This document shows, piece by piece, positions 39,670-59,711 of a stretch of 64,000 bases of DNA (the stretch's first letter is position 1; every line of letters begins with the position of its first letter). The notes beneath the pieces are model-generated. The model was given only the letters and a program-made list of their open reading frames with translations. It was not told where the DNA came from and made no database searches. Origin of the DNA: an uncultured Candidatus Saccharibacteria bacterium (GTDB taxonomy: Bacteria; Patescibacteriota; Minisyncoccia; Phycocordibacterales; SBAW01). The position numbers were made by a program, and so were the translations under genes. The DNA lies in assembly GCA_964615415.1 (NCBI GenBank), contig CAZTNI010000001.1, forward strand, positions 25,290 to 89,289, given 5' to 3'.

Positions 39670-39675
39670 CACGAT

Positions 39676-41452: not shown

Positions 41453-41456
41453 AAAA

Positions 41457-41825: not shown

Positions 41826-41859
41826 TATAAGTCGTTCACCCCCATGAGACCTCGCGATC

Positions 41860-42225: not shown

Positions 42226-42240
42226 CGGGATGACCCTCCG

Positions 42241-42582: not shown

Positions 42583-42614
42583 ATGAATGGCCCTCCTTTC
42601 GCGGCCATTTTCGC

Positions 42615-42636
42615 GAGAGCGCACCGTTGCGCTCTC
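42615..42636. promoter_or_regulatory. perfect 9-bp-arm palindrome upstream of island gene B (operator or 5'-UTR hairpin)
   Basis: gagagcgca ccgt tgcgctctc. Confidence 0.35.
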
Positions 42637-42660
42637 AGGTTGACACCTGGCCAGATCCTA

Positions 42661-44211
42661 TCACAGGACCGACCTTTTGTCAAGCCTCCCTACTCTCTGG
42701 CCAAAAAAGCCTGAAAAGACAACCAAAAGTGCACCTATGGGAAAGAACGTACCGAACACCTGGTAAGGAGTGGAGTCGGTACGCAGAGGTACGTCTTCCT
42801 CCACTACACTAGAGAGATCCCATGAAGTCTCTGTGACAACCATACCACGATTGTCGAGCATGTACGCTGGGGACATGTTGCCGGATTGCACGTACCACCT
42901 CCCCTCCTCCACTGCGCGCACTTTCGCTATCGATTGCATCTGTGCAAAAACGGTACGCGACCCATGGAACCAGCTGTAGGAGGAAACATTTGCGAGTACT
43001 GACGCTCCCTTTTCTACATCACGAGCATATAAGTACGGACTCATAACTTCGTCACAAAAACGTACTGCCATATTCCCACTCCCCACCTGTGCAAGTTTTG
43101 TGTGTGTCCCACTTACGTACGAACGTGTATTTCGCACTTGTTCTTGAAACGCCTTATTCCCTACCAACGCGAGCACTCCGTGCGATATATACGGCACGTA
43201 CTCACCAAGTGGAAGGATAAATTGTTTGTCACTCGTTTCAATACGACCATCGCGATACACAAAGATACTTCGCGCGTGCGTGTTGCCGTCATTGCTTCTC
43301 ACACTTTCTGCATCTATGAATAGCGGAACTTGCGGCACCATGTTCGCATCGCGCGCATACCGTGCAAATGCCGCACTCTCTGGAAGTAGCAGTGCTTCCG
43401 CAGTTACATGTGGCGCAACAAGTGTTGCAAGTGTATCTATACGAGTTTCCGCTTCGCCCGGAAGGAAGTGAAGTTGTGGCGGGAAGTACGTACTTACTGC
43501 AGCGACGCGAATAGTTTCTTCACTCGTCGTAATATTTCCAAACAACGACCACGCTCCATACCCGCTCACACAGCACACAACGACAATACTTACGCCGACA
43601 TAGATGTTGCGCTCGATGTTCTTCGTTGTAATGACTCTATATATAAGAACATTCACGAGTATCACTGTTGCGCTCAACAGGTATACACCGCCAACGGACG
43701 CAAGTTGCAACAACAACGCATTATTCGCGAGCACGTATCCCAAGTGACCTAAGGTAAAGTGCGCACCCAGGAGCGATCCGTTTCCTGCAAACACAAATGC
43801 AAAGACGTGCGCATGCAACCATTCCCCCACTACCCATGCAGACGGAATGCATACAAGCACGGTGTATCGATACGAAAGAAAATACTGCAGCACCACTGCA
43901 AACACCGCTGTTCCAAGCGAGAGTACGCAGACTGAAAAAATCCAGTGTGTGCCGACTGCAAGTATTTGGAGTAGTGGGTGTTCAATCCCAAACCAATCTA
44001 TCGGCAGTGTGTGCCAAAAAATTGCCCACAATGCTAACCCATACAAAGGGAGTCCGAGTAAAAAACCTCTGAACGCTTGAGTGGAAAGACCGACTGGTCG
44101 TTTTGTCGTTATAAAAAGAAATGGCAAAAACCCTACCAGTGCAAGTGGCCACAGGGCAGGGACAACAAATCCCACACCAAGAAAAATGCCGGAAACGAAA
44201 GATGCTATCAA
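42661..44211 (-). CDS. lnt: apolipoprotein N-acyltransferase-like (N-terminal multi-TM + CN-hydrolase domain)
   Basis: Catalytic-triad contexts LLLPESAAF (Glu), SDKQFILPLGEYVPY (Lys), VRFCDEVMSP (Cys). C-terminal TM. Confidence 0.7.
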   Translation of the reverse strand: MIASFVSGIFLGVGFVVPALWPLALVGFLPFLFITTKRPVGLSTQAFRGFLLGLPLYGLALWAIFWHTLPIDWFGIEHPLLQILAVGTHWIFSVCVLSLGTAVFAVVLQYFLSYRYTVLVCIPSAWVVGEWLHAHVFAFVFAGNGSLLGAHFTLGHLGYVLANNALLLQLASVGGVYLLSATVILVNVLIYRVITTKNIERNIYVGVSIVVVCCVSGYGAWSLFGNITTSEETIRVAAVSTYFPPQLHFLPGEAETRIDTLATLVAPHVTAEALLLPESAAFARYARDANMVPQVPLFIDAESVRSNDGNTHARSIFVYRDGRIETSDKQFILPLGEYVPYISHGVLALVGNKAFQEQVRNTRSYVSGTHTKLAQVGSGNMAVRFCDEVMSPYLYARDVEKGASVLANVSSYSWFHGSRTVFAQMQSIAKVRAVEEGRWYVQSGNMSPAYMLDNRGMVVTETSWDLSSVVEEDVPLRTDSTPYQVFGTFFPIGALLVVFSGFFGQRVGRLDKRSVL

Positions 44212-46551
44212 TTAGATTTCCTGAAACGCTGGCAACAGCGTAATCGTTGCGGTCGCACTTACACTTGTCTCACCATTGCTACAGGTAAGCGTATAGCGTT
44301 TTGTCTGTGTAATAGCAGTTGTTGAAACAGTACCCGTGGTGCTGGTAACGCTGTATGTACCAGTGTCATCTGTCGGGTCTGGAGAGATAGTGCAGGTAAG
44401 ACCTGTGATTGAACTGAGTGTCCAGCGGAGTGTCGAGGCTACGCCACGGCGAACTTTGTCGCCATAGAACGAGGAAATACTTGGCAAGTTAGCAACACAC
44501 TGTGTACCACTCCAGCTAAATCCTGATGGAATACAGCTGCCAGTAGGACCTGGGTTTGGCGCACTGCAGCCCGTTGGAACAGACGCCTGTCCGCCAATGA
44601 TGTCGGTACAAATATCGAGTGAACATTGGCTCCCCGTCCAGTAGTATCCTGACGGAATACATACACCTGATGGGCTTGGAGTTGGACCGGCGCAGCCCGT
44701 TGGAAGTGATGATTGCGAACCACCAACATCCGTACACACATCCGCTGGTCCAACGGTTACGGTAACCGTGTCTACCGCACTACTCCCTCCTGCTCCTGTG
44801 CACGTCAATGTATACGTGTACGTGCCGAGTGTAGAAAATGGGCCAACAGTGCGCTCTACGCCACTCGTACCCGTCGTAGATCCAGTCCACGGCGCAGCAG
44901 CATCTTTAGTGAGGGTGCAGTCGCTCGAGTTAGTAGACGACCAACTAAACGGAAGAGACGAACCTTGTGTTGTCGACACTGTGTCATCCGCTTCATTATT
45001 TCCAAGCAAGTCTGCAGTAGTGGCTGGGTTTACAGTTAGCGTTGTAGAACACGTGCCGCTGCCACCTGGTCCGGTTACGGTGCCGGTGTACGTAGTTGTC
45101 GTACTTGGCCCAACTGAAGTAGAACCTGCGCCCGGAGGAGTAGACACAGTCCCAACACTGGTTATTGAAAATGAGGTTGCCGCTGTTGAAGACCAGGTGA
45201 GCGTAGACGAACCACCACTATTTATAGTGCTTGGGCTAAGACTCAAGGTACACGTTGGTGTTGTAGCAGCAGTCCACGTAACGCGAACTTCTCCAAGACC
45301 ACCATAACTACCATCAACTTCTCTGTTCGGACCTCCGGTGCCTGTACTACCGCGTGCACCTACAGTAACTGCAATTGATGAGTCTTGGGTTAGTTCTCCA
45401 AAAGAAAATGTTTTGGTCGCATAGCCACCACCACCGCCTCCACCACCGTCGTTACTTAAACCACGACTGCCTCCACCTCCACCGCCGCCTGGCGACTTTC
45501 CGTAGTTTCCAAAAATAATGCCGGGACCGACAGCGCCGCCGCCATCACCCCCTGGTCCGCCCGCATCACCTCCACTACCACTCCAGTTGCCGGTCGGGTA
45601 TCCAGCATTATTACCGTCCTCTCCGTCTTGACTACCAGAACCTCCTCCCGAAGTCGATCCGCCGTCTCCACCAGGACCATTTCCTCCACAACAATAACTA
45701 GATGCGCGCCCCTTTTCTCCTCCATTAGCAATAACAGGGGTCGGAGAATTAAATTTACTTTGACCGCCGTTGGTTGCGTCGTCTTGCGACCACCATCCTG
45801 CCGAGCCACCACCGCCACCACCTCCCCACACTTCTACCGTCAAAGAGTCATATGCCGGAACAGTGAAAGTACCTGAAGACGTAAAGTGTTGTGTACCGCC
45901 GGTAGCGTCTATCCAGGTAATGCGTACCTCTCCGCGCGCGCCGTCACCTCCATCAGGGCTACCACTTGTAGCACCCGAGCCCCCAGACCCTACTGTTACG
46001 CTTATGTTAGACCCTGCTGTAAGCTCACCGCTTGTGTACGTTCTTGTTGCGTATGCTCCTCCTCCGCCGCCACCATAGTTTTTATAATATCCTGAAAAGT
46101 ATTCTGAATAGGAACTACTGCCTCCTCCCCCAGGAATCATACCGTTTGCCCCGTTGTCAGTGAGTGTATTAGGCGCCCCTTTACCACCGGCAGCCCCTCC
46201 TGCATTACCGCCCGCGCCTCCGCTCGCGCCACTCTGGCCCGCACTACCATTTGCACCTGAAGTTGCCCCAGAGTATGTACCTCCAGAACCTGCAGTACCA
46301 TTGTTATCGCCCCTACTTCCGCCATTCGCTATAAGCGGCGTGGGTGCATTAAATTTACTTTGCCCACCGTTACTACCATCAGCGTTGGAATTAGCGCCTC
46401 CTCCTCCACCGCCCCACACCTCCACTGTTATAGATGTATAGCCCGTAGGTACAGTAAAAGTGCCCGAACTTGTAAATGTTTGAGAGCCTGCAAACACAAG
46501 CTGTGGAAGAAATAAGAGTACACTGGCGAGAAGTAATTTTTTCATGATCAT
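44212..46551 (-). CDS. secreted glycine-rich protein with ~200-aa internal tandem duplication and conserved C-terminal domain/LPAFQEI tail
   Basis: Signal peptide MIMKKLLLASVLLFLPQLVFA. Two copies of QxFTSSGTFTVP..TVEVWGGGGGG...NGGQSKFN.PTP.IANGG...GEVR.TW. C-terminus ...KRYTLTCSNGETSVSATATITLLPAFQEI. Confidence 0.7.
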   Translation of the reverse strand: MIMKKLLLASVLLFLPQLVFAGSQTFTSSGTFTVPTGYTSITVEVWGGGGGGANSNADGSNGGQSKFNAPTPLIANGGSRGDNNGTAGSGGTYSGATSGANGSAGQSGASGGAGGNAGGAAGGKGAPNTLTDNGANGMIPGGGGSSSYSEYFSGYYKNYGGGGGGAYATRTYTSGELTAGSNISVTVGSGGSGATSGSPDGGDGARGEVRITWIDATGGTQHFTSSGTFTVPAYDSLTVEVWGGGGGGGSAGWWSQDDATNGGQSKFNSPTPVIANGGEKGRASSYCCGGNGPGGDGGSTSGGGSGSQDGEDGNNAGYPTGNWSGSGGDAGGPGGDGGGAVGPGIIFGNYGKSPGGGGGGGSRGLSNDGGGGGGGGYATKTFSFGELTQDSSIAVTVGARGSTGTGGPNREVDGSYGGLGEVRVTWTAATTPTCTLSLSPSTINSGGSSTLTWSSTAATSFSITSVGTVSTPPGAGSTSVGPSTTTTYTGTVTGPGGSGTCSTTLTVNPATTADLLGNNEADDTVSTTQGSSLPFSWSSTNSSDCTLTKDAAAPWTGSTTGTSGVERTVGPFSTLGTYTYTLTCTGAGGSSAVDTVTVTVGPADVCTDVGGSQSSLPTGCAGPTPSPSGVCIPSGYYWTGSQCSLDICTDIIGGQASVPTGCSAPNPGPTGSCIPSGFSWSGTQCVANLPSISSFYGDKVRRGVASTLRWTLSSITGLTCTISPDPTDDTGTYSVTSTTGTVSTTAITQTKRYTLTCSNGETSVSATATITLLPAFQEI

Positions 46552-47009
46552 TGACCTACATATACAACACCGACTTGCTTGCCACTTTTGTTATGGAACA
46601 GCCAGGTACCTTGCTCTTTAAATTTAAATTCCCAAAATTCTCCTGATGAAAGATTTTTGCACGAGTTAAATGCAGACTCGCCACACTCCCCTTCTTCTGG
46701 GTACGGAGGATTATCGATCGAAGAAACTCCTTCGAGCCACAGCTTCCCACCCGAGTTGTTTATAAATCGGATTGTGTCACCTGCGCGCACACGCACTTCC
46801 GACGGCTCAAAACGCGCATCGGAAAGAGAGACCAGATGTTCAAACCCGCCTTGACTTGAAGCAGGATTAGACGGCAACTCCGTTGTGATATTTTCCTCTT
46901 CCACAGGCAAAGGAGTAAGACTCGGCAAAAATATCCACGCAACAAAAAATGCAACACCTCCTAAGACAAGAAGAATGATAAGGGGGAGATATTTTTTAAC
47001 ATCCCACAT
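46548..47009 (-). CDS. hypothetical secreted/anchored protein with cupredoxin-like beta domain; translationally coupled (ATGA) to the Gly-rich gene
   Basis: N-terminal TM YLPLIILLVLGGVAFFVAWIFL. EVRVRAGDTIRFINNSGG pattern. Confidence 0.45.
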   Translation of the reverse strand: MWDVKKYLPLIILLVLGGVAFFVAWIFLPSLTPLPVEEENITTELPSNPASSQGGFEHLVSLSDARFEPSEVRVRAGDTIRFINNSGGKLWLEGVSSIDNPPYPEEGECGESAFNSCKNLSSGEFWEFKFKEQGTWLFHNKSGKQVGVVYVGQ

Positions 47010-47021
47010 GCTTGTTCCATT

Positions 47022-47043
47022 ATGGCACTGTAAAAACCCTCAT
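47022..47043 (-). terminator. rho-independent terminator downstream of tRNA-Arg(CCG)
   Basis: aaaaccctcgtatgagggtttttac on the minus strand. Confidence 0.55.
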
Positions 47044-47074
47044 ACGAGGGTTTTCAACAGTGAGGACACCTATG

Positions 47075-47146
47075 TCCTCTCGGCAAGAATCGAACTTGCA
47101 TCTCCTCCTTCGGAGGGAGGCGTTCTATCCATTGGACTACGAGAGG
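47075..47146 (-). tRNA. tRNA-Arg (anticodon CCG), C1:G72
   Basis: CCTCTCG/CGAGAGG acceptor. Anticodon arm CCTCC-CTCCGAA-GGAGG. T-arm GCAAGTTCGATTCTTGC. Confidence 0.75.
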
Positions 47147-47159
47147 GACCCGTGGAGTC

Positions 47160-47405
47160 TTATTGGGTCTTCAGAAGCCGAGCCACGCCCGCCTTCCGGC
47201 GTGCAGCGGTGTTCTTCTTTATAAGGCCACGCTTCATTGCCTTGTCGATAGCCTGGTATGCAGCTGCGAGTGCAGCGGCGTCCCCTTTGTTTGCAGAGCG
47301 AGCTGTCTTAAGAGCAGTGCGCAATGCAAAACGGCGCGAGTCGTTCATAGACTTGCGGCGGCGGCTTTGGCGGTGTGCCTTCTTTGCTGACTTTGTTATT
47401 GCCAT
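47160..47405 (-). CDS. rpsT: 30S ribosomal protein S20
   Basis: MAITKSAKKAHRQSRRRKSMN.... Start at the internal ATG. Confidence 0.85.
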   Translation of the reverse strand: MAITKSAKKAHRQSRRRKSMNDSRRFALRTALKTARSANKGDAAALAAAYQAIDKAMKRGLIKKNTAARRKAGVARLLKTQ

Positions 47406-47469
47406 GACAGGCAGAATACATTGAAAAGAGGTATTCCGCAAGCCGGCCCCTCCAGATTATAGTTAAGGC

Positions 47470-48060
47470 ATGATCGGGAAGCTTACGGGACGATTTGACG
47501 GCACCACCCCAGACGGCACCGCTCTTATTAATGTACATGGGGTAGGCTACGCCGTCCGGGTACCCGTCGGTTCCCTTCTTGACCTTAAAGCCGCATCCGG
47601 AGAAATCTCTCTCTATATACATACAGCAGTACGGGACGACGCTATCGACCTGTATGGGTTTACTGCAACCGAAGAACTCATATTTTTTAAACAATTAATG
47701 AGTGTCTCGGGTATTGGCCCCAAAACAGCCATCAATATTCTTAATGTGGCTGATGTCACCACCCTCAAAAACTCTGTTGCTCGTGGCGACAGCACGGCCC
47801 TCACTAAAGTGTTCGGTATTGGCAAAAAGAGTGCAGAGCGTATAGTAGTCGAACTGCGAGACAAACTTGCACAGGAAGTAGGAACAGCTGGCATTGGTAT
47901 TCCTGCGGGCGATGATGGCGAAGTTCTTGAAGCCCTCATGTCGCTCGGGTATAAAGCAGACGAAAGTAGAAAGGTATTGAAAGAAATCGGCCCTGCAAAA
48001 GAATTTTCTACTCGCGAGCGCATTGCTCAAGCACTCAAACACTTAGGTTCGCGCATGTAA
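47470..48060 (+). CDS. ruvA: Holliday junction DNA helicase RuvA
   Basis: MIGKLTGRF...VGYAVRVP (OB domain). LMSVSGIGPKTAINIL (HhH). Confidence 0.9.
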   Translation: MIGKLTGRFDGTTPDGTALINVHGVGYAVRVPVGSLLDLKAASGEISLYIHTAVRDDAIDLYGFTATEELIFFKQLMSVSGIGPKTAINILNVADVTTLKNSVARGDSTALTKVFGIGKKSAERIVVELRDKLAQEVGTAGIGIPAGDDGEVLEALMSLGYKADESRKVLKEIGPAKEFSTRERIAQALKHLGSRM

Positions 48061-48065
48061 GTAAT

Positions 48066-49316
48066 ATGAAATCACTACTTAAAAAACTGATCCCCGCTTC
48101 CCTGCTCGACCAGTATCATTTATTTCTTGCAAAGCTTGGCGCACGCATATACCGCCACCCTTCAAAAGAATTACTGGTAATTGGAGTGACTGGCACTAAA
48201 GGAAAATCCACTACCACAGAACTTATTCGGGCTATTTTAGAAGAAGCTGGCCACATGGTCGCTTCAACAAACACCATTCGCTTCGCCATCGGCAAAGAAA
48301 GTCGACCGAACCTTTTTAAAATGTCGATGCCAGGGCGCTTTTTCCTGCAAAAATTTTTACGTGAAGCAGTTACCAAGGGAGCTACCCATGCAGTTATTGA
48401 AATGACGTCTGAAGGCGCAAAGCAGCATCGTCATCGCGGTATCGAGATGGACGCTCTTGTGTTTACCAACCTTGCTCCTGAACACCTCGAGTCGCATGGC
48501 GGCATGGAAGCATATGCAAACGTAAAAATTTCTATCGCAAAACATCTTGCAACATCTTCAAAACGCCCTCGCTACATTGTAGCGAACGCAGACGATAAGT
48601 ACGGAAAACGCTTTTTGGAGGTCGATGTTGAAGAAAAACGCCCCTTCTCTCTGAAAGATGCAGAACCATACAACACGGACGACAAAGCTATTCGGTTTGT
48701 ATGGAAGCGCGAGCTGTTTACTGTTCCCCTGCCCGGCCTCTTTAACTTACAAAATGTGCTCGCCGCATTAACCATGGGAGACGCACTCGGCATCCCGCTT
48801 GAAACCATGAAGCGTGCACTTGAGCATGTATCAACAGTGCCCGGTCGTGCAGAGCGTGTGAACCGCGGCCAGCAATTTACCGTCATTGTCGACTACGCAC
48901 ATACACCAGATTCACTTCGTGCGCTGTACGAAACATTTAAAGGCAAGCGAATTATCGGCGTTATGGGTGCAACCGGCGGTGGCCGCGATCATTGGAAGCG
49001 TCCGGAAATGGGTGCCATTGCTGACGAGTATTGCGACATGGTCATCCTTACCAACGAGGACCCGTACGACGAAGACCCGAACAAAATTATTGCCGATGTT
49101 GCGAAAGGATTTTCTCGCAAAAAGCCGCATGTTATTTTCGATCGTCGCGCAGCTATCCGCGAAGCGCTTCGCGAAGCAAAGCAAGGCGATGCGATACTTA
49201 TAACCGGCAAGGGCACTGACCCGTACATCATGGGCCCACGTGGCACGAAAGAACCATGGAGCGACAAAAAAGTAGCTGAAGAAGAACTTGATAAACTATT
49301 TCCTTCTAAAAAATAG
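48066..49316 (+). CDS. Mur ligase family protein, MurE-like
   Basis: IGVTGTKGKSTT P-loop. VIVDYAHTPDSL (MurE-type DYAHTPD). No recognizable N-terminal UDP-binding domain. Confidence 0.6.
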   Translation: MKSLLKKLIPASLLDQYHLFLAKLGARIYRHPSKELLVIGVTGTKGKSTTTELIRAILEEAGHMVASTNTIRFAIGKESRPNLFKMSMPGRFFLQKFLREAVTKGATHAVIEMTSEGAKQHRHRGIEMDALVFTNLAPEHLESHGGMEAYANVKISIAKHLATSSKRPRYIVANADDKYGKRFLEVDVEEKRPFSLKDAEPYNTDDKAIRFVWKRELFTVPLPGLFNLQNVLAALTMGDALGIPLETMKRALEHVSTVPGRAERVNRGQQFTVIVDYAHTPDSLRALYETFKGKRIIGVMGATGGGRDHWKRPEMGAIADEYCDMVILTNEDPYDEDPNKIIADVAKGFSRKKPHVIFDRRAAIREALREAKQGDAILITGKGTDPYIMGPRGTKEPWSDKKVAEEELDKLFPSKK

Positions 49317-49334
49317 AAGGATACAATACAGCCT

Positions 49335-49544
49335 ATGGCGGACGATCATAAATCAGATCCATTTGCAGAAGCAAAAAACGTCGCGTACTGGGTAGTTGGA
49401 GTTATGTTGGTGCTTTTGGGTGCCTGGTATTTAAGCGGGGGCCCTGAACGCTCAGACCTGCGCGGCATATTCCTTACTCCTATAACGGGCGAGTCATACG
49501 GACCCACTCTTCCAACCGGACCAACGTCGACCCCTAATCGGTAA
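49335..49544 (+). CDS. hypothetical small membrane protein
   Basis: 69 aa, one TM. Confidence 0.3.
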   Translation: MADDHKSDPFAEAKNVAYWVVGVMLVLLGAWYLSGGPERSDLRGIFLTPITGESYGPTLPTGPTSTPNR

Positions 49545-49546
49545 TT

Positions 49547-49945
49547 ATGTTTAATCCATTCCCTGATCTCTTAATGTACGGGTTCTTTGCTCCCACCCTT
49601 CTTCGTTTTGCTGCTGCAACTATCTTTGCCTACCTCGCCTACCGACACTTCGAACACCGAGGAAAAGCGTCTCGCATTGTGTTCCCTATTGTAGGCCGCG
49701 GGGTTTGGATCGTATGGTTTGCAATTCTTGCAGAACTCGCAGTTGCTGCTGCGCTGTTTGCAGGATTTTATACACAAATTGCGGCGCTTGTGGGGGCTAT
49801 TATCGCACTCAAACACATTGTGTGGCGCGGCAAGTATCCAGGATTCTTTTGGATTACCCGCAGCGCAGCATTTGTACTCCTTACTGTTTGTCTTTCTCTT
49901 ATACTAAGTGGCGCCGGCGCCCTTGCTTTTGATCTTCCACTTTAG
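49547..49945 (+). CDS. hypothetical 4-TM membrane protein (DoxX-like)
   Basis: 132 aa, hydrophobic throughout. Confidence 0.4.
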   Translation: MFNPFPDLLMYGFFAPTLLRFAAATIFAYLAYRHFEHRGKASRIVFPIVGRGVWIVWFAILAELAVAAALFAGFYTQIAALVGAIIALKHIVWRGKYPGFFWITRSAAFVLLTVCLSLILSGAGALAFDLPL

Positions 49946-50029
49946 TAGGAATGGGTTAGAGAAATAAGTATTAAAGAGGCTACGCAGGCGCGACGGCGCC
50001 GAGTCTGAGCAAATTTCTAGCAAGAAATT

Positions 50030-50536
50030 ATGCGTACTCTTGAATACTTCATTTCCCAACCTATTCCCATGATTCTCATCCTCCACAACATACGCAGCGT
50101 CCATAACGTTGGATCTATATTCCGCACCGCGGACGCTGCGGGTGTGTCTAAAATATTTTTAACTGGCTACACCCCTACCCCCCTCGATCGCTTTAACCTA
50201 CCCCGCAAAGATTTTGCAAAAGTTTCTTTGGGCGCAGAGAAAACTATTCCCTGGGAATATGCAAAACAATTTGCGCCCGTGGCTAAAAAATTAAAGAAAG
50301 AGGACTACACCATTGCAGCTATTGAACAAGATAAAGACTCTACTTCCCTCTTTGACTACAAACCGCAAGATACAGAAAAACTCGCGCTTGTGTTGGGCAA
50401 CGAAGTGCTTGGTATTTCAAAACTGTCACTCAAACTCTGCGACGTTATTCTAGAGATCCCTATGCGAGGCAAAAAAGAATCCCTCAACGTCTCCGTCGCT
50501 GCAGGCATCGCAATGTTTACTGTTTTGCAAAAATAA
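50030..50536 (+). CDS. SpoU/TrmH-family RNA 2'-O-methyltransferase
   Basis: ILHNIRSVHNVGSIFRTADAAG...LVLGNEVLGIS...IPMRGKKESLNVSVAAGIAMF. Confidence 0.8.
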   Translation: MRTLEYFISQPIPMILILHNIRSVHNVGSIFRTADAAGVSKIFLTGYTPTPLDRFNLPRKDFAKVSLGAEKTIPWEYAKQFAPVAKKLKKEDYTIAAIEQDKDSTSLFDYKPQDTEKLALVLGNEVLGISKLSLKLCDVILEIPMRGKKESLNVSVAAGIAMFTVLQK

Positions 50537-50538
50537 AT

Positions 50539-50567
50539 CCCGCCGCGAATCGCGGCGGGTATTTTTA
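50539..50567. terminator. bidirectional rho-independent terminator
   Basis: cccgccgcg aat cgcggcggg, followed by tattttta (plus strand) and preceded by an A-run (minus strand). Confidence 0.7.
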
Positions 50568-50825
50568 TGAGGATGACTTGGGTGCGTCCGGAAAGAAGTG
50601 ATCTCGAACTGAGTGGAAGACACTGCCCGGAAGAGTCTCTTCGAATGTCCTCACCGGCTCCCGAAGAGGCTCGTTCGGATATTCCCCGAGGTTGAGCCGC
50701 GGCGGCTCCTTGCCCGAGAAAAATGTTTCGACAAGAGTTTCAAAGACGCTCGGGGTCTCCTCGAAGGATCTCACCGGTTCTCTCAGACCTCCGTCTTGAG
50801 GATAGATATCAATTCTGTTTTGCAT
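50565..50825 (-). CDS. hypothetical small protein with internal REPVR(S/T)FEET repeat
   Basis: ATG at 50825 with AAGGGAG SD. Two copies of LREPVRxFEETxP. Confidence 0.4.
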   Translation of the reverse strand: MQNRIDIYPQDGGLREPVRSFEETPSVFETLVETFFSGKEPPRLNLGEYPNEPLREPVRTFEETLPGSVFHSVRDHFFPDAPKSSS

Positions 50826-50937
50826 CAAACACTCCCTTGGTTACCACCAAAGGAACTGTACTCCTTAATGAAGAAACCCGCCAGAGGTCTTGCGACTTGG
50901 CGGGTTAAGCAGGTAGGGCTGCTCAGGCCTACGAGAA

Positions 50938-51279
50938 CTAGAGGTTCGGGAGAACTTCGCGGAGGAACTTCCCTCCGTCATTCGAATGCGGCACGTAGGC
51001 ACCGCGCCGAATATATCCGAAGCTGGTGCCCTGCATCACTTCTCGGAACTTCGCGACAACTGTCTGTTCGTCGAGACTGGGCAGGAAGTTTGCATTGAGG
51101 ACGACCCACGGCTTTCTGTCCTCGTCGTATATCGCGATCACGCCGTTATTGTCGTCGCACGTGAATGGCGACCCTCGGCCGACAAGCTGAGGCTTGCCGT
51201 TCACTGTCTCGGTCGTGCCGAGCGCAGAGAAAAAACCGTAGCCAAGAAGAATCTCTGAAAGCTTCTCATTCGTACCCAT
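50938..51279 (-). CDS. hypothetical protein
   Basis: ATG at 51279 with AGGAGA SD. A canonical promoter lies ~50 nt upstream. Confidence 0.45.
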   Translation of the reverse strand: MGTNEKLSEILLGYGFFSALGTTETVNGKPQLVGRGSPFTCDDNNGVIAIYDEDRKPWVVLNANFLPSLDEQTVVAKFREVMQGTSFGYIRRGAYVPHSNDGGKFLREVLPNL

Positions 51280-51337
51280 CTTGCGTCTCCTAAGACATCT
51301 TGCGGGTAGGCAGAGGCCAATCCTCATACCTAGTACA

Positions 51338-51366
51338 ATTATACACCCAAATTACATATTTGTCAA
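51338..51366 (-). promoter_or_regulatory. canonical sigma-70-type promoter (TTGACA, 17-nt spacer, TATAAT)
   Basis: Minus strand reads TTGACAaatatgtaatttgggtgTATAAT. -35 at 51361-51366, -10 at 51338-51343. Confidence 0.6.
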
Positions 51367-51513
51367 GTATATACAAGCCCCGCGAAAAAGCTTCAAAAAT
51401 AGGCACCATTTTGCTATAGTGTGTCAATTGCGCTCCATATCTGCACTTTGCTTGATATGGACGCGCGTTCGGGGCGAAAAGAAAGCGAGAGGCTTTCTTT
51501 TCTTCCTCACTTT

Positions 51514-51587
51514 GCGCCCATAGCTCAGTTTGGTAGAGCGGCTCCCTTTTAAGGAGAAGGTCCTTGGTTCAAATCCAAGTGGGCGCA
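51514..51587 (+). tRNA. tRNA-Lys (anticodon TTT)
   Basis: GCGCCCA/TGGGCGC acceptor. D-arm GCTCAGTTTGGTAGAGC. Anticodon loop CTTTTAA. T-arm CTTGGTTCAAATCCAAG. Confidence 0.85.
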
Positions 51588-51602: not shown

Positions 51603-52163
51603 CTAGAGTTTTAAGGCAAATCGTTCCAGGAGAAGTTCTAGGTCCCCTGCCCCTCTGTGCGAATCGTGGTACAGGAAGGTTAATTCGCGCGAAAGTTTTA
51701 CATCTTGCATCTGCCGCGCCTTCCATGCCAGGAGCCCTGCTACCGCTTCTGCTTTTTCTCCTGCGCGGAGCGCTTCCGTAATCCCGAGCCACAGCTTTTT
51801 CTTATCTCTGGTACCGAGCGCAAAAGTCACTCCAAATGGATCAAATCCCCTCTCCTTTTTTGGTGCTTCTTTTTGTATATCAATGTTTGCACCTGCTTTT
51901 GTCAGGATGTCGGTCGGCCGTTTAAGCAATTTTTCTTCTTTGAAAACGAATGTGTGTTCCGACTCTACAAACACTTCTGCCAAATCTAGAAATTCGTCTT
52001 GCCGTTCACTGTTTATTGCCCCTTCTAAAATAAAAGTGCGTACTCCACCAAAAAGAGCTGTGGTGGATGCAAGCGCGGCAATCTCATCCACCGCCATGTT
52101 CATCCACTTTAATTCTTCCCCTTGCGGAGCCTTGCCTCCGCTGCCAACAATAACGCGCATCAT
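51603..52163 (-). CDS. hypothetical protein (weak resemblance to DNA polymerase III delta C-terminal region)
   Basis: 186 aa. The stop overlaps the polA start (ATGA). Confidence 0.3.
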   Translation of the reverse strand: MMRVIVGSGGKAPQGEELKWMNMAVDEIAALASTTALFGGVRTFILEGAINSERQDEFLDLAEVFVESEHTFVFKEEKLLKRPTDILTKAGANIDIQKEAPKKERGFDPFGVTFALGTRDKKKLWLGITEALRAGEKAEAVAGLLAWKARQMQDVKLSRELTFLYHDSHRGAGDLELLLERFALKL

Positions 52164-55011: not shown

Positions 55012-56694
55012 ATGGTGCAGTTCGCTGACACAGAACAAAATCGACGCATCGCTTTCCTTAAAAACCGAGAGGAAGAAGAGCTTGCGCAAATGCTCTCTAA
55101 AAAATATGGGGTTGAGTATGTCGACCTGTCTCTTGTTGCGGTCAACGTGGATGCGTTGCGTGTTTTAAACGAGAAAGAAGCACGAGATGCCGAAGCGGCC
55201 GTATTCGGCAGAGTTGCAAAACGCTTAAGCCTTGCCGTACGCGCACCGGAAAATCCGAAAGTAAAAACCTTGGTGCAAAAGCTGCAAGACGCTGGCTATG
55301 AAGTTGCCGTGTTTATGACCTCCCAAGAAAGCCTGCGACGCGCGTTCGCACGCTACGCCGACCTGTCGTATGCGACAGAAACAAAAGCGGGTGTATTTGA
55401 ACTGTCGAATGAAGAAGTTGAGCAGCTGCTCGCGAAGGTAACGAGTCTTGCGGATATTGGGAAACTCATTACCGAAGCAATTACGCTAAAACATACGTAT
55501 CGTATTACCCGTATTCTGGAAATTATTCTTGCTGGCGGTCTTGCCACTGGCGCGTCGGACGTACACTTTGAACCCGAAGAAGAACATATTCGCCTACGCT
55601 ATCGCCTCGACGGCGTATTGACCGACGTGCTTACGTTCGACCACGACACTTATAAACTCGTACTCTCTCGCCTTAAACTGCTTTCAGGATTAAAACTCAA
55701 TATCGTTGCCGATGCACAAGACGGTCGCTTCAGTATCAAGGTAAAAGGATCCGAAATCGAGCTGCGTACTTCAATACTGCCTGGCAACTATGCGGAAACA
55801 GTGGTGCTTCGTATTCTTAACCCTTCCGCTATTAGCGTACAACTAGAAGAACTTGGATTAGATGATGCGCTGCGGGTGCGTATTGAAAAAGAAGTTGCTA
55901 AACCAAACGGAATGATTTTAACTACCGGACCAACTGGTTCCGGTAAAACCACCACCCTCTACGCATTTTTGCGCAAAATAAATAAACCTGAAACAAAAAT
56001 TATTACGATCGAAGACCCGATCGAATACCACCTGCAAGGGATCGTACAAACACAGGTTGATAAAAAAAATTACACTTTCGCCGCAGGTTTGCGCTCAGCG
56101 CTCCGCCAAGACCCAGACATCATCATGGTGGGAGAAATTCGTGACAGTGAGGTTGCCGAAACTGCAATCAATGCTGCATTGACCGGCCACTTGGTGTTCT
56201 CTACCCTTCACACCAACAATGCGGCCGGGTCCTTCCCCCGCCTCATTGACCTTGGGGTCAGTGAAAAAGTACTTTCATCTGCAGTCAACGTTGCTATGGC
56301 CCAACGCCTGATCCGCAAACTCTGCAAGGTATGTAAAAAAACTCGGCCCGCTACCGCGGAGGAAAAAACACTGATCGATCGAGTTATGGCAGGTGTGCAC
56401 GACCGCTCACTTGTACCGCAAGACACCTCTACTATATATGAGGCTGCAGCCGAAGGGTGTGCCGAGTGCCACGGCCGTGGTTATAAAGGCCGTATTGGTA
56501 TATTTGAGGCCATTTTCATGGACCATGCCATCGAAGAGATTCTTCGCTCTAGACCATCTGAGCGTGAAGTGGCAGAAGCAGCAAAACCGCAAGGCATACC
56601 AACAATGCAGGAGGACGGGATATTAAAAGTATTGCGCGGTGTTACCACTATTGAAGAACTTTCGCGCGTTGTCGATCTTGACGCTCGCACGTAG
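55012..56694 (+). CDS. pilB: type IV pilus / type II secretion assembly ATPase (PilB/GspE family)
   Basis: ILTTGPTGSGKTTTLYA (Walker A). IITIEDPIEY, DPDIIMVGEIRD, STLHTN. C-terminal Cys cluster CKVCKK...CAECHGRGYKGR. Confidence 0.85.
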   Translation: MVQFADTEQNRRIAFLKNREEEELAQMLSKKYGVEYVDLSLVAVNVDALRVLNEKEARDAEAAVFGRVAKRLSLAVRAPENPKVKTLVQKLQDAGYEVAVFMTSQESLRRAFARYADLSYATETKAGVFELSNEEVEQLLAKVTSLADIGKLITEAITLKHTYRITRILEIILAGGLATGASDVHFEPEEEHIRLRYRLDGVLTDVLTFDHDTYKLVLSRLKLLSGLKLNIVADAQDGRFSIKVKGSEIELRTSILPGNYAETVVLRILNPSAISVQLEELGLDDALRVRIEKEVAKPNGMILTTGPTGSGKTTTLYAFLRKINKPETKIITIEDPIEYHLQGIVQTQVDKKNYTFAAGLRSALRQDPDIIMVGEIRDSEVAETAINAALTGHLVFSTLHTNNAAGSFPRLIDLGVSEKVLSSAVNVAMAQRLIRKLCKVCKKTRPATAEEKTLIDRVMAGVHDRSLVPQDTSTIYEAAAEGCAECHGRGYKGRIGIFEAIFMDHAIEEILRSRPSEREVAEAAKPQGIPTMQEDGILKVLRGVTTIEELSRVVDLDART

Positions 56695-56819
56695 GAGTGT
56701 GAAAAGGCGAAAAATTCGATATACACCGTGAAAAAAATATCGGGTCAACGTTGTGGGAGCTACTATTGAGGAGTAGAGTGGGTATGTGCGAGAGAGTCTG
56801 CCTTTCGGTAGACAGGGTT

Positions 56820-56985
56820 CGAGGGAATATATCTCCAAGCAATAACACAATTCGAAATCTATCGAAAAGCGGAGGCCGCTCTTGAGGTGCACCCCCGCCC
56901 ATGCGCAAAGCGTATGAGCCGGATTGTCCTTAGAAAGGTTCCGATACCCGCGGGGGGTCGTATTGCTTGGAGATATGCTCACCCG
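56820..56985. other. non-coding region with long imperfect inverted repeats (candidate structured RNA or miniature inverted-repeat element)
   Basis: ggttcgagggaatatatctccaagcaata (56820-56847) vs reverse complement of tattgcttggagatatgctcacccgaacc (56958-56986). No ORF of 60 aa or more. Confidence 0.3.
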
Positions 56986-57083
56986 AACCAGCAGTACAAA
57001 TAAGTCGTGCGTTGGTTCCTGGAAAAAGAAAAAGCTCCCTAGAAGAAGGAGCGCTAGAGTGATCCTAGCATACTAAAGAACGT

Positions 57084-58106
57084 ATGTCAAGCACACCGGA
57101 TATTACACCAAACGAGGGAGGGTCTCCCCTTTTTCTTGACCAAACCTTGCGTCCAGCGTCATGGAACGACTACGTGGGACAAGAAACCATCAAGAATAAT
57201 CTCCATATTTTAATCTCTGCCGCAAAAGAACGCGGAGCTCCTCCTGAACATATCCTTTTTTATGGTCCGCCGGGGCTTGGTAAGACAACACTTGCGCACT
57301 TAATTGCTCGTGAATTAGGTGGAAGTTTGCGCACAACGTCTGGGCCTGCTATTGAACGTGTCGGCGACTTAGCTGCACTACTTACTAACCTGGCACCGGG
57401 AGATATTTTATTTATCGACGAGATCCACCGCCTTTCTCGTTCTATTGAAGAGGTGCTCTACCCTGCCATGGAGTCGGGAGTGCTTAATATCATTATCGGC
57501 AAAGGCCCATCAGCACGCACGCTCGACCTCCCTCTACCGCCATTCACACTTATTGCCGCAACAACACGCGTTGCCGATCTTTCAGCACCACTACGCTCTC
57601 GCTTTTCTGGTGGTGTGTTCCGTCTTGAGTTTTATTCTGAAGACGATATTGCAAAAATTGTTGAACGCTCAGCGAACATTCTTGGTGTTGAAATAGACAA
57701 AGGCGGCATACAAGAAATTGCTCAACGTAGTCGCTCTACCCCACGTACTGCAAATTATCTTCTGAAGCGTGCACGCGACTACGCACAACTCAAGCGCGCT
57801 CCGCTGGCACAAGCATCTGTTGAAGCCGCGCTTGGCATGCTTGAAGTGGATTCCTTGGGCCTTACTCCGCTTGACCGCAAGTTGCTTACAGTACTTATTG
57901 AGCGCTTTAACGGAGGCCCTGCCGGAGTATCCGCACTTGCTGCAGCGCTTTCAGAAGAACCGGAAACAATTTCAGAAGTGCACGAACCATTCCTTTTGCA
58001 ATTAGGATTAATAGAACGCACCCCGCGCGGCCGTGTGGCGACTAAAAAAGCGTACGAGCATCTAGGAAAAGAAGCACCAGAAAACTTTAACGACAGACTT
58101 TTGTAA
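57084..58106 (+). CDS. ruvB: Holliday junction DNA helicase RuvB
   Basis: [28 protein letters not shown], sensor and winged-helix regions. Confidence 0.95.
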
Positions 58107-58151: not shown

Positions 58152-58553
58152 CTAAGCAGTATCCAGCAAAGGTTGCCACTTCTCTGAAAGACCAGGGAAT
58201 ACTTCGAGCAAGCCGGCAACCAGAACAGGGAGTGCCTCGTGGACTTTATTTACATTTTCCACAGAGATTATTTCTTTCCCTTTTGTGGAAAAACACATGC
58301 GCATTTTTTGCAGGTGATCAGTTTTGCCAACTGACACTTCGCAATAAATCTCATTCGAGCCCGCACTTCCTGCCAAATGCCACCTAATATCTCCCCCATC
58401 CCACAGCATAATGCCGTAAGCTTCCCCTTTTGGAGGACCAGGGGGCAAGAAACCCAGAAGAAGCGTGGTGACTTGGAGTATTTCCTTTCTCTTGCGATCA
58501 ACTTCTGCAGAGGAGCGAATGAGTCGCGCAATGAAATTATTATCAATTTTCAC
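58152..58553 (-). CDS. hypothetical protein
   Basis: 133-aa ORF convergent with ruvB. Confidence 0.35.
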   Translation of the reverse strand: MKIDNNFIARLIRSSAEVDRKRKEILQVTTLLLGFLPPGPPKGEAYGIMLWDGGDIRWHLAGSAGSNEIYCEVSVGKTDHLQKMRMCFSTKGKEIISVENVNKVHEALPVLVAGLLEVFPGLSEKWQPLLDTA

Positions 58554-58699: not shown

Positions 58700-59227
58700 A
58701 TGGCAGGACATAGTAAATGGGCAAAACTTAAACACCAAAAAGGTAAAACAGACGCACAGAAGAGCAAAACGTTTTCTAAACTTGTGCGTTTTATTGCAGT
58801 AGAAGCTAAAAAAGCTAAAGGAGACCGCACTGCCCCAGGGCTTCGTGCGGCAATAGAAAAAGCTCGCGGAGAAAACATGCCGGCCGACAACATTGACCGC
58901 GCAATTGATAAAGCGTCTGGCAGCAGTGCAGAACTCGAGGCGGTGCAATACGAAGCATACGGCCCAGGCGGCGCAGCAATTATTATCGACGGCTACACGG
59001 ATAGCCGTAACCGCACCGCACAAGAAATAAAACATCTTCTTTCTGAACATGGCGGCACGCTTGCTACTCCGGGCGCTGCTATCTGGGCATTTACGAAAGT
59101 TGATGGCGCACTTGAACCAACCACCACTGTTCCCCTTTCTGAAGAAGATGGGCAAAAATTAGGAACACTCCTCGAAGCGCTCGAAGAACACGATGACGTC
59201 AACGAAGTCTATACCAACGGCGCATAA
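58700..59227 (+). CDS. YebC/PmpR-family transcriptional regulator (short)
   Basis: MAGHSKWAKLKHQKGKTDAQKSKTFSKLVR...LRAAIEKAR. Confidence 0.8.
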   Translation: MAGHSKWAKLKHQKGKTDAQKSKTFSKLVRFIAVEAKKAKGDRTAPGLRAAIEKARGENMPADNIDRAIDKASGSSAELEAVQYEAYGPGGAAIIIDGYTDSRNRTAQEIKHLLSEHGGTLATPGAAIWAFTKVDGALEPTTTVPLSEEDGQKLGTLLEALEEHDDVNEVYTNGA

Positions 59228-59711
59228 TACTCGGGTCCTCGCATTTGACCCGGGGTTTGAGCGTCTTGGTGTTGCAATTGTAGAAAAACAGAGCGGCAAA
59301 GAGATTCTCTTGTATTCAGATTGCATACGCACAAGCAAATCACTTTCTTTTCACGAACGCTTGTACATAGTAGGTGCCACCGCAGTAAAACTAATTGAAG
59401 AATATAAGCCCACTGCGGTTGCGCTTGAAGAGGTCTACTTCTCTAAAAACGAGAAAACTGCTATGAAAATTGCCGAGGTGCGTGGTGTATTAGCGTATGT
59501 AGCCCGCGCAAACCACCTTCCGGTCTATGAATACACGCCCCAGGAAGTAAAAATTGCAGTTACGGGGTACGGAAAGAGCGACAAAACAGCAGTAGCGCTC
59601 ATGGTGCCGAAGTTAGTACAGGTTTCAAAACAAAAACGCTTGGATGATGAGCTAGATGCGATCGCAGTAGGGCTTACGTGTCTCGCGTCTGTACGAAATT
59701 CTCTCTCATAA
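59193..59711 (+). CDS. ruvC: crossover junction endodeoxyribonuclease RuvC
   Basis: VLAFDPGFERLGVAIVE...Y.P..VK..V.GYG...K, C-terminal D..DA.A.A. Overlaps the yebC 3' end. Confidence 0.85.
   Translation: MTSTKSIPTAHNTRVLAFDPGFERLGVAIVEKQSGKEILLYSDCIRTSKSLSFHERLYIVGATAVKLIEEYKPTAVALEEVYFSKNEKTAMKIAEVRGVLAYVARANHLPVYEYTPQEVKIAVTGYGKSDKTAVALMVPKLVQVSKQKRLDDELDAIAVGLTCLASVRNSLS

Follow-up and report, generated by a model that had tools for sequence, protein, structure and literature searches.

A previously uncatalogued small RNA gene with a four-armed fold opposite ruvB in Paceibacteria-type Patescibacteria

Closest described systems

Among described RNAs, 6S RNA (ssrS; RF00013 and relatives) is about 150-190 nt long, and its ends are paired in a long stem opposite a long imperfect stem. 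It is encoded by a stand-alone gene with a strong promoter, and the middle of its rod is where most of the sequence conservation is found. The RNA described here, from the gap between pilB and ruvB in an uncultured member of the Patescibacteria, is similar in all of these respects, although its promoter is a predicted one. The difference lies at the centre, which is a large open bubble in 6S RNA and, in the RNA of this locus, a tight four-way junction from which two covarying hairpins project. General features of 6S RNA are given in PMC8876501.

The Y RNAs and YrlA, partners of Ro60 and Rsr, also have their ends in a long stem with a conserved, presumably protein-recognised helix, and the remainder of the molecule is more variable. 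YrlA has a four-way, tRNA-like junction. However, the conserved helix of the RNA at this locus adjoins the junction and is not near the termini, T-arm and D-arm signatures are missing from it, and no Rfam Y RNA or YrlA match is obtained. No rsr gene occurs among the proteins annotated next to the RNA. A third point of comparison is the core of RNase P RNA (CR-I/P4), in which a closing stem and a 5' hairpin are likewise followed by an AGGA-rich segment, but RNase P RNA is twice the size and has a P4 pseudoknot, a specificity domain and CR-IV/V, all of which are missing here. Finally, back-to-back promoters and bidirectional intrinsic terminators resemble the edges of the locus, where a segment of about 45 bp is shared by the two predicted promoters and the closing stem P1, with its A/U tracts, lies between convergent genes. 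Such elements account for the flanks but not for the conserved 110-nt interior.

The pilB-ruvB gap and its inverted repeat

The window analysed, a single stretch of DNA of 64 kb, contains a gap of 389 nt between two genes encoded on the same strand:

55012..56694, plus strand: pilB-type T2SSE ATPase gene (Pfam T2SSE), convergent with the RNA
57084..58106, plus strand: ruvB (Pfam RuvB_N, AAA_lid_4, RuvB_C), divergent from the RNA

No credible ORF crosses the gap, in agreement with the original prediction; the ORF list gives short or overlapping mechanical ORFs only. The gap is also structured beyond chance, as the folding z-scores are -4.3 on the plus strand and -3.9 on the minus strand, and none of 100 shuffles folds as well on either. 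The GC-richer core strings and two upstream hairpins (56760-56776 and 56796-56813) that had been pointed out are found in the sequence, as are both strings of a long imperfect inverted repeat, which are near reverse complements. The repeat itself stands, and only its position needs correction: a repeat search puts one 29-nt arm at 56816-56844 and the other at 56961-56989 (86% complementarity across a spacer of 116 nt), which is 3-4 nt away from the 56820-56847 and 56958-56986 first given. The arms recur in relatives with compensatory changes.

Architecture of the RNA

Judged from sequence comparison, the gap contains a real, previously uncatalogued small RNA gene with a four-armed fold, and the inverted repeat is the closing stem, P1 (25-29 bp), of this minus-strand RNA. 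The family's covariance model, R1, scores 71.3 bits (E 1e-17) on the minus strand of the window vs 39.9 bits on the plus strand, and the match at 56819..56986 is the only one in the 64 kb. The helices, with coordinates taken from the R1 model alignment, are as follows:

56819..56986, minus strand: structured core, a four-way junction of P1-P4 (covariance model R1)
56816-56989, minus strand: the same core with P1 extended by the 3 further pairs that are available
56962..56986, minus strand: P1 5' strand, UCGGGUGAGCAUAUCUCCAAGCAAU (repeat arms, covariation, model alignment)
56945..56959, minus strand: P2, a short hairpin, GACC-loop-GGUA, directly 3' of the P1 5' strand (model alignment)
56873..56942, minus strand: P3, a long imperfect hairpin with a variable tip (covariation, model alignment)
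56870-56880, minus strand: possible small extra hairpin, GCGG-CCU-CCGC, in the window copy
56847..56870, minus strand: P4, a hairpin right next to the P1 3' strand, with a CUUU...AAAG base in the family and a covarying inner stem (covariation)
56819..56843, minus strand: P1 3' strand, AUUGCUUGGAGAUAUAUUCCCUCGA (repeat arms, covariation, model alignment)

The four arms meet in a tight junction with linkers of 0-2 nt, and the core ranges from 127 to 181 nt across members. The sequence-conserved block of the family is AUCUCCAAGCAAU, the inner part of the P1 5' strand; in close members, the inner pairs of P1 are either invariant or show no change other than G-C to G-U, and the outer pairs covary freely. 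The apparent invariance of this block is partly circular because the metagenome loci were picked with a pattern that required it, but the block does vary in distant members found by the model. In P3, the conserved segments are AGGAC...CCU and CCGG/CGGGG (CUGG/CUGG in the family, with tandem U.G/G.U). Conserved nucleotides lie inside helices and around the junction, namely in the inner 13 bp of P1, AGG/CCU, the tandem U.G/G.U, the P4 base and the UA of J3/4. The hairpin tips are variable and often carry UUCG-type caps, and no conserved single-stranded seed is present in the family.

Within the family, the window copy is atypical and richer in GC, scoring 71 bits against 100-140 for most members. 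The base of its P3 is poorly paired.

Covariation and strand assignment

Compensatory changes, seen in a set of more than 90 distinct sequences, maintain all four helices P1-P4. Alignments were made both with MAFFT E-INS-i and with the covariance model. In the plain MAFFT alignment (n=83), 90.3% of the cells are paired, vs 39-51% when the partner strand is slid, and the covariation score is 0.434 vs at most 0.146 for the slid controls; none of 500 shuffles, which ignore phylogeny, reaches 0.434. The model-based alignment (n=92) gives 91.6% paired cells (38-51% in slid controls) and a score of 0.480, with changes on both sides in 40 of 49 pairs. RNAalifold independently gives P1, P3 and P4. P2 is found in all ten of ten single-sequence folds and covaries, and it is poorly aligned, with 61-65% of its cells paired.

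Individual helices follow the same pattern. P3 pairs 58-137 and 59-136 each occur as six pair types, pair 78-118 is GC in 65 sequences and AU in 19, and 78 of 91 retain the U.G at 83-114. In P4, all seven of seven pairs show changes on both sides, and 89.5% of the cells are paired. Distant members (L016, L022, L012, L028 and L059) retain P1 via compensatory changes. A search for additional covarying long-range pairs or pseudoknots returned phylogenetic correlations only.

The paired cells include 13.9% G-U and 1.9% A-C, and this asymmetry establishes the minus strand as the RNA strand. R1 agrees: at every locus, its score for the plus strand falls 30-80 bits short of that for the minus strand. 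The original prediction had framed the gap as a ruvB-upstream element with more structure than a promoter needs, and had offered a leader element as one candidate. Both are wrong because ruvB and the RNA are encoded on opposite strands; following the RNA along its own strand, one next reaches the convergent pilB at its 3' end. The minus-strand RNA is not the 5' UTR of a same-strand downstream gene, which is what a riboswitch or leader would be.

Predicted promoter, leader and terminators

Sequence signals suggest that the RNA would be transcribed from a near-consensus extended -10 promoter of the sigma-70 type, back-to-back with that of a probably leaderless ruvB:

57062..57090, minus strand: predicted RNA promoter (consensus scan, 10/12 matches plus TG)
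57090-57085, minus strand: -35 box, TTGACA, followed by a 17-nt spacer
57070-57069, minus strand: TG of the extended -10
57067-57062, minus strand: -10 box, TAGGAT
near 57055, minus strand: predicted transcription start
57023..57052, minus strand: leader hairpin GCUCCUUCUUCUAGGGAGC, then UUUUUCUUUUU, between the predicted start and P1, terminator/attenuator-like (sequence)
56790..56813, minus strand: hairpin GUCUACC-GAAA-GGCAGAC, then UCUCUC, immediately 3' of P1, a candidate terminator (sequence and folds)

The arrangement of TTGACA, 16-18 nt and TAnnnT is present in 121 of 131 members, 117 of which also have the TGn of an extended -10; on the opposite strand, 19 pass. Promoter, start site, ends and abundance of the RNA are all predicted from sequence. 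In the window, the ruvB start codon (ATG at 57084-57086) falls partly within the -35 box, and the same overlap is seen in most members. Just 1 of 99 relatives has an SD-like motif ahead of ruvB, and a -10-like hexamer stops 7 or 9 nt short of the ATG, a pattern suggesting that ruvB is probably leaderless. The two promoters are accommodated in one segment of about 45 bp with their -10 regions interlocked.

These features bear on the possibility that the element belongs to the plus strand, either as a 5' leader or riboswitch of ruvB or as an intercistronic element between pilB and ruvB. It does lie directly upstream of ruvB, in a gap between two same-strand genes, and the plus strand folds well too (z = -4.3). 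However, on that strand the G-U cells, 13.9% of those paired, would turn into A-C mismatches, the model scores fall by the 30-80 bits noted above, and ruvB seems to be leaderless, having a -10-like element of its own 7-9 nt ahead of the ATG and lacking an SD. A P1 of 25 bp would, moreover, form with or without a ligand. A plus-strand element of either kind is thus highly improbable.

Between the predicted start and P1, the leader varies in length from 3 to 180 nt across members, and processing or other promoters must therefore be assumed. The closest relative, L179, has a different leader sequence with the same hairpin and U-run, and leaders with a hairpin and U-run of similar kind occur in many members. 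Neither a tRNA nor any other known RNA was found in the long-leader variants. The hairpin at 57023..57052 could halt many transcripts short of the structured core.

At the other end, 81 of 136 members have a U-run straight after P1, an arrangement like that of an intrinsic terminator, and transcription would end at P1 and this U-run in most members. The window copy, unlike most relatives, lacks a U-run after P1, and the hairpin at 56790..56813 is a candidate for its terminator; L179 has a separate hairpin and U-run terminator about 35 nt downstream. Since pilB converges on P1, the stem probably doubles as a bidirectional terminator.

It may be that the locus is mainly a cis-acting DNA/RNA module, that is, a bidirectional terminator or insulator between pilB and ruvB combined with a strong, competing, antisense-oriented promoter, and that the transcript has no function in trans. 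A-rich and U-rich tracts flank P1, the pilB stop codon is 10-30 nt from the 3' end of the RNA in many relatives, and the linkage to ruvB is invariable. Because the -35 box of the RNA overlaps the ruvB ATG and the -10 regions interlock, each promoter, when occupied, should influence the other. A terminator, however, requires a hairpin alone, and the interior of about 110 nt keeps three more covarying helices together with conserved internal-loop and junction nucleotides in lineages sharing only 60-70% RuvB identity, which neither termination nor promoter interference explains. An exclusively cis-acting module is accordingly regarded as unlikely.

Distribution and gene neighbourhood

The same element is found in at least 120 metagenome contigs and 21 Paceibacteria-type genomes, and the RNA at ruvB was detected in Paceibacteria-type Patescibacteria only. 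It was not detected at the other bacterial ruvB loci or at three other ruvB loci of the candidate phyla radiation (CPR). Run SRR14271366 carries exactly this locus, and Hainich groundwater is among the sample sources of the contigs. The comparison with the same intergenic region in relatives that the original prediction called for shows high conservation, with the same arms upstream of ruvB. In the matches examined, a convergent pilB, the RNA and a divergent ruvB occur in a single orientation (pilB rightward, the single-copy RNA leftward, ruvB rightward). The pilB linkage is sometimes broken, and the ruvB linkage is invariable. The RNA is kept across lineages in which RuvB is only 55-80% identical. 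As it is kept at the same spot in well over 100 uncultured Patescibacteria (class Paceibacteria), it is probably a housekeeping-type RNA.

Proteins encoded around the RNA include PolA, TsaE, PilB, RuvB, YebC and RuvC. In the RNA-bearing loci examined, ruvA is not directly upstream of ruvB; it is directly upstream in the RNA-less CPR loci L026 and L038.

This distribution also bears on the earlier suggestion of a MITE-like inverted-repeat insertion, to which a remnant of some other mobile or viral element may be added. The long terminal inverted repeats around a core of about 116 nt fit such an origin. The extra copies that would mark a MITE were sought in the 64-kb window, and a second copy of the 29-mer does not occur there at up to 3 mismatches. 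All of the metagenome (at least 120) and genome (21) matches lie at the pilB/ruvB site in one orientation, and the arms change by compensation, with G-U tolerated on one strand only (13.9% vs 1.9% for A-C). No target-site duplication or transposase was seen near the RNA, and no match to it was found in viral contigs or phage genomes. With a single window copy and such strict synteny, the candidate does not survive, and the chance of a mobile origin is close to negligible.

Relationship to known RNA families

At the gathering score, none of the 4227 models of Rfam 15 matches anywhere in the window. A search of 56500-57300 at E<=10 gave a single 13-bit HOTAIR match, which lies inside ruvB; thirteen other family members gave no consistent match, and the two best members alone, again at E<=10, gave only matches of 9-18 bits (PhotoRC-I, microRNA hairpins). 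The Rfam/Infernal check that had been proposed thus returns no clean family, and this negative extends to 6S, RNase P, SRP and tmRNA. Literature searches did not turn up a description of the RNA. ARAGORN recognises no tRNA or tmRNA in 56000-57600 or in 18 family loci, and both identities were rejected.

Several further candidates were set aside. Y RNA and riboswitches were rejected on anatomy, as were hairpin-type ribozymes, conserved internal loops being present in one arm only. A retron msr-msd would have inverted repeats at its flanks, a conserved branching G beside the 5' arm and a neighbouring reverse transcriptase (RT) gene; here, the nucleotide after the P1 5' strand can be C, U, A or G, and no RT is encoded among the neighbours. 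The tip of P3 varies in length and sequence, with UUCG-type caps, so that there is no conserved apical loop of the SRP type; SRP RNA (4.5S), which is marked by a conserved apical tetraloop and by the symmetric/asymmetric internal loops of helix 8, was rejected on this basis and for want of an RF00169 match.

It could nevertheless be imagined that the RNA is a universal one (RNase P RNA, SRP RNA or tmRNA) in highly diverged or miniaturised form. In the window copy, AAGGACAAUCCGGCUCAUAC resembles the RNase P CR-I/P4 5' strand, GAGGAAAGUCCGGGCUCCAUAG, and its likeness to the E. coli CR-I/P4 strand is 16/20. The original prediction had considered and rejected RNase P RNA, and rightly so: the "P4-like" string ACAAUCCGGCUCAUAC belongs to the local covarying hairpin P3, of which it forms the 5' strand, and not to a long-range P4. 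The family consensus, AGGACGUYCUGGU, pairs locally with CUGGGRY...AUCCU, with covariation, and neither a further covarying long-range pair or pseudoknot nor an equivalent of the specificity domain or CR-IV/V accompanies it. At 127-181 nt, the core is far from the roughly 330-400 nt of RNase P RNA with its P7-P12, and there is no match to RF00010, RF00011 or any other Rfam model. SRP RNA and tmRNA are opposed by the variable P3 tip and the ARAGORN result. CPR RNase P RNAs are diverged and required lowered thresholds, which favours the idea, but the circular CPR genomes presented, among them those of Paceibacteria, all yielded an RNase P RNA with RF00010, which counts against it (PMC8172020). 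That the RNA belongs to one of these universal classes is very improbable.

More weight may be given to the RNA being the 6S-type RNA of the lineage. By analogy, its rod would mimic an open promoter and sequester the RNA polymerase holoenzyme, which would be freed by a product RNA templated on the P1 5' strand. The RNA has the rod form looked for in a 6S RNA (about 160-200 nt, with a closing and a distal stem), its core size of 127-181 nt and its layout of long closing stem and long imperfect distal stem are suitable, the predicted promoter of its own is very strong, the conserved inner P1 would template the product RNA, and the 64-kb window is without a 6S gene, although a canonical one may well be encoded elsewhere in the genome. 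To our knowledge, 6S RNA is the sole widespread housekeeping RNA that is poorly conserved in sequence. Against this, there is no open central bubble: the linkers are 0-2 nt, and P4 and, less clearly, P2 are kept as hairpins by covariation. The Rfam 6S models give nothing, even with the best members alone at E<=10. Having failed both the bubble and the Rfam tests, membership in the 6S family was rejected and a functional analogy was retained; this analogy is considered unlikely.

Proposed role and significance

Among the candidates first put forward, an unrecognised structured ncRNA is the one that fits, given the strong covariation, the RNA's own predicted promoter and the lack of an Rfam match. 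On balance, we favour, with some reservation, an independent minus-strand gene in the gap, encoding a structured RNA of about 170 nt, or more should the leader be retained, that would represent a new family and is probably highly expressed and probably protein-binding. The mature RNA would act in trans as a stable protein-binding RNA, a scaffold or decoy, and not as a base-pairing regulator; the suggestion of protein binding comes from the conservation pattern.

A more specific and very unlikely extension of this independent-gene reading is that the RNA forms the core of a lineage-wide Paceibacteria ribonucleoprotein tied to recombination, in which it would be an RNA mimic of a Holliday junction, made from the bidirectional promoter of ruvB and serving as a decoy or regulator of RuvA, RuvB and RuvC. 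The invariable linkage to ruvB, compared with the breakable linkage to pilB, the absence of ruvA directly upstream and the tight conserved junction are compatible with such a mimic.

The uncultured Paceibacteria make up a very large share of the CPR, and their genomes measure about 0.5-1 Mb. The RNA is likely to be important to the cell, since its position, promoter and four helices have been kept in a lineage with little spare DNA. It is nevertheless missing from Rfam 15, the catalogue behind genome annotation. The predicted interlocking of its promoter with that of a leaderless ruvB would make a neat case of compact bidirectional promoter design. Model R1 and alignments A2 and A3 provide a concrete, testable object for metatranscriptome mapping and pull-downs. 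The RNA may point to a new housekeeping ribonucleoprotein, or to a divergent means of fulfilling a known function, for instance that of 6S-type RNA.

The intergenic region between pilB and ruvB

There is no credible ORF between pilB and ruvB, as had been predicted originally, and the gap folds far better than its shuffled counterparts on both strands (z = -4.3 and -3.9).

55012-56694, plus strand: pilB-type ATPase gene
57084-58106, plus strand: ruvB

The two arm strings described in the original prediction are present, but were placed 3-4 nt off; a repeat search locates the arms at 56816-56844 and 56961-56989 (29 nt, 86% complementary, with 116 nt between them). The two small hairpins noted at the same time both lie between pilB and the RNA, at 56760-56776 and 56796-56813.

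Where the arms mismatch, the plus strand reads A-C, which corresponds to G-U on the minus. Counted across every predicted pair of 91 distinct sequences, 13.9% of cells are G-U and 1.9% are A-C. In each locus a covariance model of the RNA favours the minus strand over the plus by 30-80 bits (71.3 versus 39.9 bits in the window). The G-U excess and the model scores thus place the RNA antisense to pilB and ruvB: it is divergent from ruvB and convergent on pilB.

Structure and covariation

The same layout is found in single-sequence folds of 10 out of 10 members and is also recovered by RNAalifold. Linkers of only 0-2 nt connect the four helices at a four-way junction.

P1: closing stem, 25-29 bp (the inverted repeat)
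P2: short hairpin, directly 3' of the P1 5' strand
P3: long imperfect hairpin
P4: hairpin abutting the P1 3' strand

Covariation was assessed in a plain MAFFT alignment (83 sequences, less than 85% identical) and in a model-based alignment (92 sequences). Standard pairs fill 90.3% and 91.6% of cells, respectively, falling to 39-51% and 38-51% when the 3' partner is slid by 1-3 columns. The covariation score is 0.434 in the MAFFT alignment, against at most 0.146 after sliding, and 0.480 in the model-based one. For each alignment, 0 of 500 shuffles equal the observed values; the shuffles ignore phylogeny, whereas the slid-partner control does not. Changes on both sides occur in 36 and 40 of the 49 pairs, and a search for further covarying pairs or a pseudoknot found none.

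The placement of conservation along the molecule is unusual. Pairs in the outer 12 bp of P1 covary without restriction; the inner 13 bp (AUCUCUAAGCAAU / AUUGCUUAGAGAU) are near-invariant in the close set, which was itself picked by that pattern, and more distant members, which only the model finds, have compensatory changes here (e.g. UAGGC/GCCUA and UGGGC/GCCCA). P3 has the conserved segments AGGAC...UAUCCU and CUGG/CUGG, the latter with a tandem U.G/G.U; 78 of 91 sequences retain the U.G. P4 has a CUUU/AAAG base, and UA links P3 to P4. Neither length nor sequence is constant at the tips of P2, P3 and P4, where UUCG-type loops are frequent. The window copy belongs to a GC-richer sublineage shared with one other locus (L179), is one of the lower-scoring members, has a poorly paired P3 base and could form an extra small hairpin, GCGG-CCU-CCGC.

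Predicted promoter, ruvB start and transcript ends

Sequence prediction finds a promoter on the RNA strand in 121 of the 131 members with enough flank (TTGACA with at least 5/6 matches, a 16-18-nt spacer and TAnnnT), 117 of which also have an extended -10 TGn. By these criteria only 19 members have one on the other strand.

57090-57085, minus strand: predicted -35 box, TTGACA
57070-57069, minus strand: predicted extended -10, TG
57067-57062, minus strand: predicted -10 box, TAGGAT
near 57055, minus strand: inferred RNA start

In most relatives the ruvB ORF opens with ATG-TCA-A (57084-57090 in the window and the homologous position in L002-L201; N-termini MSSK, MSST and similar). Read on the opposite strand, this heptamer gives TTGACAT, a perfect -35 box for the divergent RNA promoter, so that two constraints fall on one short sequence. 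Of 99 members, one has a Shine-Dalgarno-like motif within 20 nt 5' of the ruvB ATG, and the ruvB strand has a -10-like hexamer (TAGCAT/CATAnT) with its 3' end 7 or 9 nt from the start codon (window 57062-57086). These features suggest that ruvB is probably leaderless and that it probably shares with the RNA a compact, back-to-back bidirectional promoter in which the -10 regions interlock on opposite strands. A plus-strand ruvB leader, one of the original candidates, or a riboswitch is therefore very improbable, as the RNA is on the wrong strand and ruvB seems to lack a leader.

The predicted start lies 3-180 nt from P1, and many RNA leaders are made up of a hairpin and then a U-run. That of the window is terminator-like (57052-57023, minus strand), and its equivalent in L179 (about 1690-1720, plus strand) has a different, covarying stem sequence. 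Such an element may attenuate transcription, mark a processing site or stabilise the 5' end. A subgroup with long leaders of about 85-120 nt (L093, L100, L101, L110, L115, L117 and similar loci) holds the conserved blocks CAUUAUAGCAUUUG and AUAGUAUAAU/AUAGUACAAU. As the reverse complement of the former is TGCTATAAT, a second ruvB-strand promoter is possible there; the latter may be a second RNA-strand -10 nearer P1.

Of 136 members, 81 have a U-run just past P1, at most a few nucleotides away, and the pilB stop codon is often 10-30 nt from the RNA 3' end. This proximity makes it probable that P1 is at the same time a bidirectional terminator, ending pilB transcription as well. The window copy has no U-run after P1; instead, a GAAA-capped hairpin followed by UCUCUC (56813-56790, minus strand; hairpin 56796-56813) is its likeliest terminator.

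Distribution and the separation of ruvA

The window RuvB protein is present on four contigs of public assemblies, the one listed being from run SRR14271366. Among genomes it is best matched by uncultured members of the Patescibacteria (candidate phyla radiation, CPR), of Paceibacteria/Parcubacteria type, from MAGs with Zambryski-, Nomura-, Kaiser-, Ryan- and Minisyncoccia- labels. Weak blastn matches hinted that the arm sequence recurs just 5' of ruvB in several relatives, and a direct pattern search found it upstream of ruvB in nine loci. A metagenome scan for the exact pattern of both conserved arm blocks at a spacing of 95-125 nt, and thus for a set chosen via the conserved P1 block, gave at least 120 loci. 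Eight palindromic matches were oriented by inspection (L108) or by context (the other seven). All metagenome loci listed have the element between pilB and ruvB. The ruvB linkage holds without exception (49-426 nt), and pilB is in some loci farther off or substituted.

The covariance model matches the RNA 5' of ruvB in loci L002-L019, L022 (labelled Sungiibacteriota), L028 (Paceibacterota) and L059 (Moraniibacteriota). The comparison proposed originally thus shows an element conserved beside ruvB across Paceibacteria-type loci. The model did not find it in ruvB loci of Chloroflexota, Bacillota or Proteobacteria, and switching the filters off did not reveal it in L021 (Buchananbacteria), L026 or L038 either; viral contigs and phage genomes gave no matches. 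The MITE-like insertion first considered is hardly credible: no second arm copy exists within the 64-kb window, synteny is strict, and the element evolves as an RNA.

In most bacteria ruvA is directly upstream of ruvB. This is the case in the RNA-less CPR loci L026 (ruvA at 2366-2749) and L038 (1896-2438), whereas in the RNA-bearing loci examined ruvA was not found directly upstream; in the window it is 9 kb away (47470-48060, plus strand). It may be that gain of the RNA and break-up of ruvAB coincide.

Eight tRNA genes on both strands (34710, 35853, 37244, 37480, 38948, 39598, 47075 and 51514) span about 17 kb (34710-51587) and are the sole Rfam gathering-score matches in the 64-kb window, where rRNA, RNase P, SRP, tmRNA and 6S genes were not found. 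A YebC/TACO1-family ORF (58700-59227), whose second domain is matched as two pieces, overlaps the start of ruvC (59193-59711) by 35 nt; its 175 aa are presumably short for the family. Two minus-strand ORFs have no Pfam match: 51603-52163 (186 aa) and 58152-58553 (133 aa, between ruvB and yebC).

Comparison with known RNAs

The suggested Rfam scan returned nothing: at gathering score and at E<=10, no Rfam 15 family matches the window copy, 13 relatives or the single best members. ARAGORN did not find a tRNA or tmRNA at the RNA, and no description of it was found in the literature. SRP RNA, Y RNA/YrlA and retron RNA were rejected on anatomy.

One string in the RNA resembles RNase P CR-I, which we take as a lead only. 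It is the 5' strand of P3, locally paired and covarying, and both the P4 pseudoknot and the specificity domain are absent, so the earlier dismissal of RNase P RNA on geometry holds. With no Rfam or ARAGORN match either, a diverged universal RNA is highly unlikely. One study of circular CPR genomes, Paceibacteria among them, reports RNase P RNA detected by RF00010 in all of its set, in ten only with a lowered threshold (PMC8172020).

A 6S-type function is unlikely, if less so. The termini resemble those of E. coli 6S RNA, which is again only a lead. The RNA falls outside the 6S family as defined: 6S RNA has an open central bubble, whereas the centre here is a tight four-way junction with covarying hairpins, and the Rfam 6S models score nothing.

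What was originally listed as a possible unrecognized structured ncRNA is a conserved, strand-specific and covarying RNA with a four-way junction, single-copy in the window, whose predicted consensus-type promoter is conserved as well. Every membership test run places it outside the described families, and we are highly confident that a genuine structured RNA gene of a new family lies on the minus strand. Its general kind, the stable, protein-binding bacterial RNA, is already familiar.

Possible function

The RNA would be independently and strongly transcribed and stable. Conserved nucleotides fall in helices and the junction (including the tandem G.U), the loops are variable and there is no conserved single-stranded seed, a pattern that would fit action in trans via protein binding; we give this reading an even chance. 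A purely cis-acting module is improbable, slightly more so than a 6S-type function. The shared promoter would couple synthesis of the RNA to ruvB expression, by competition or by co-regulation.
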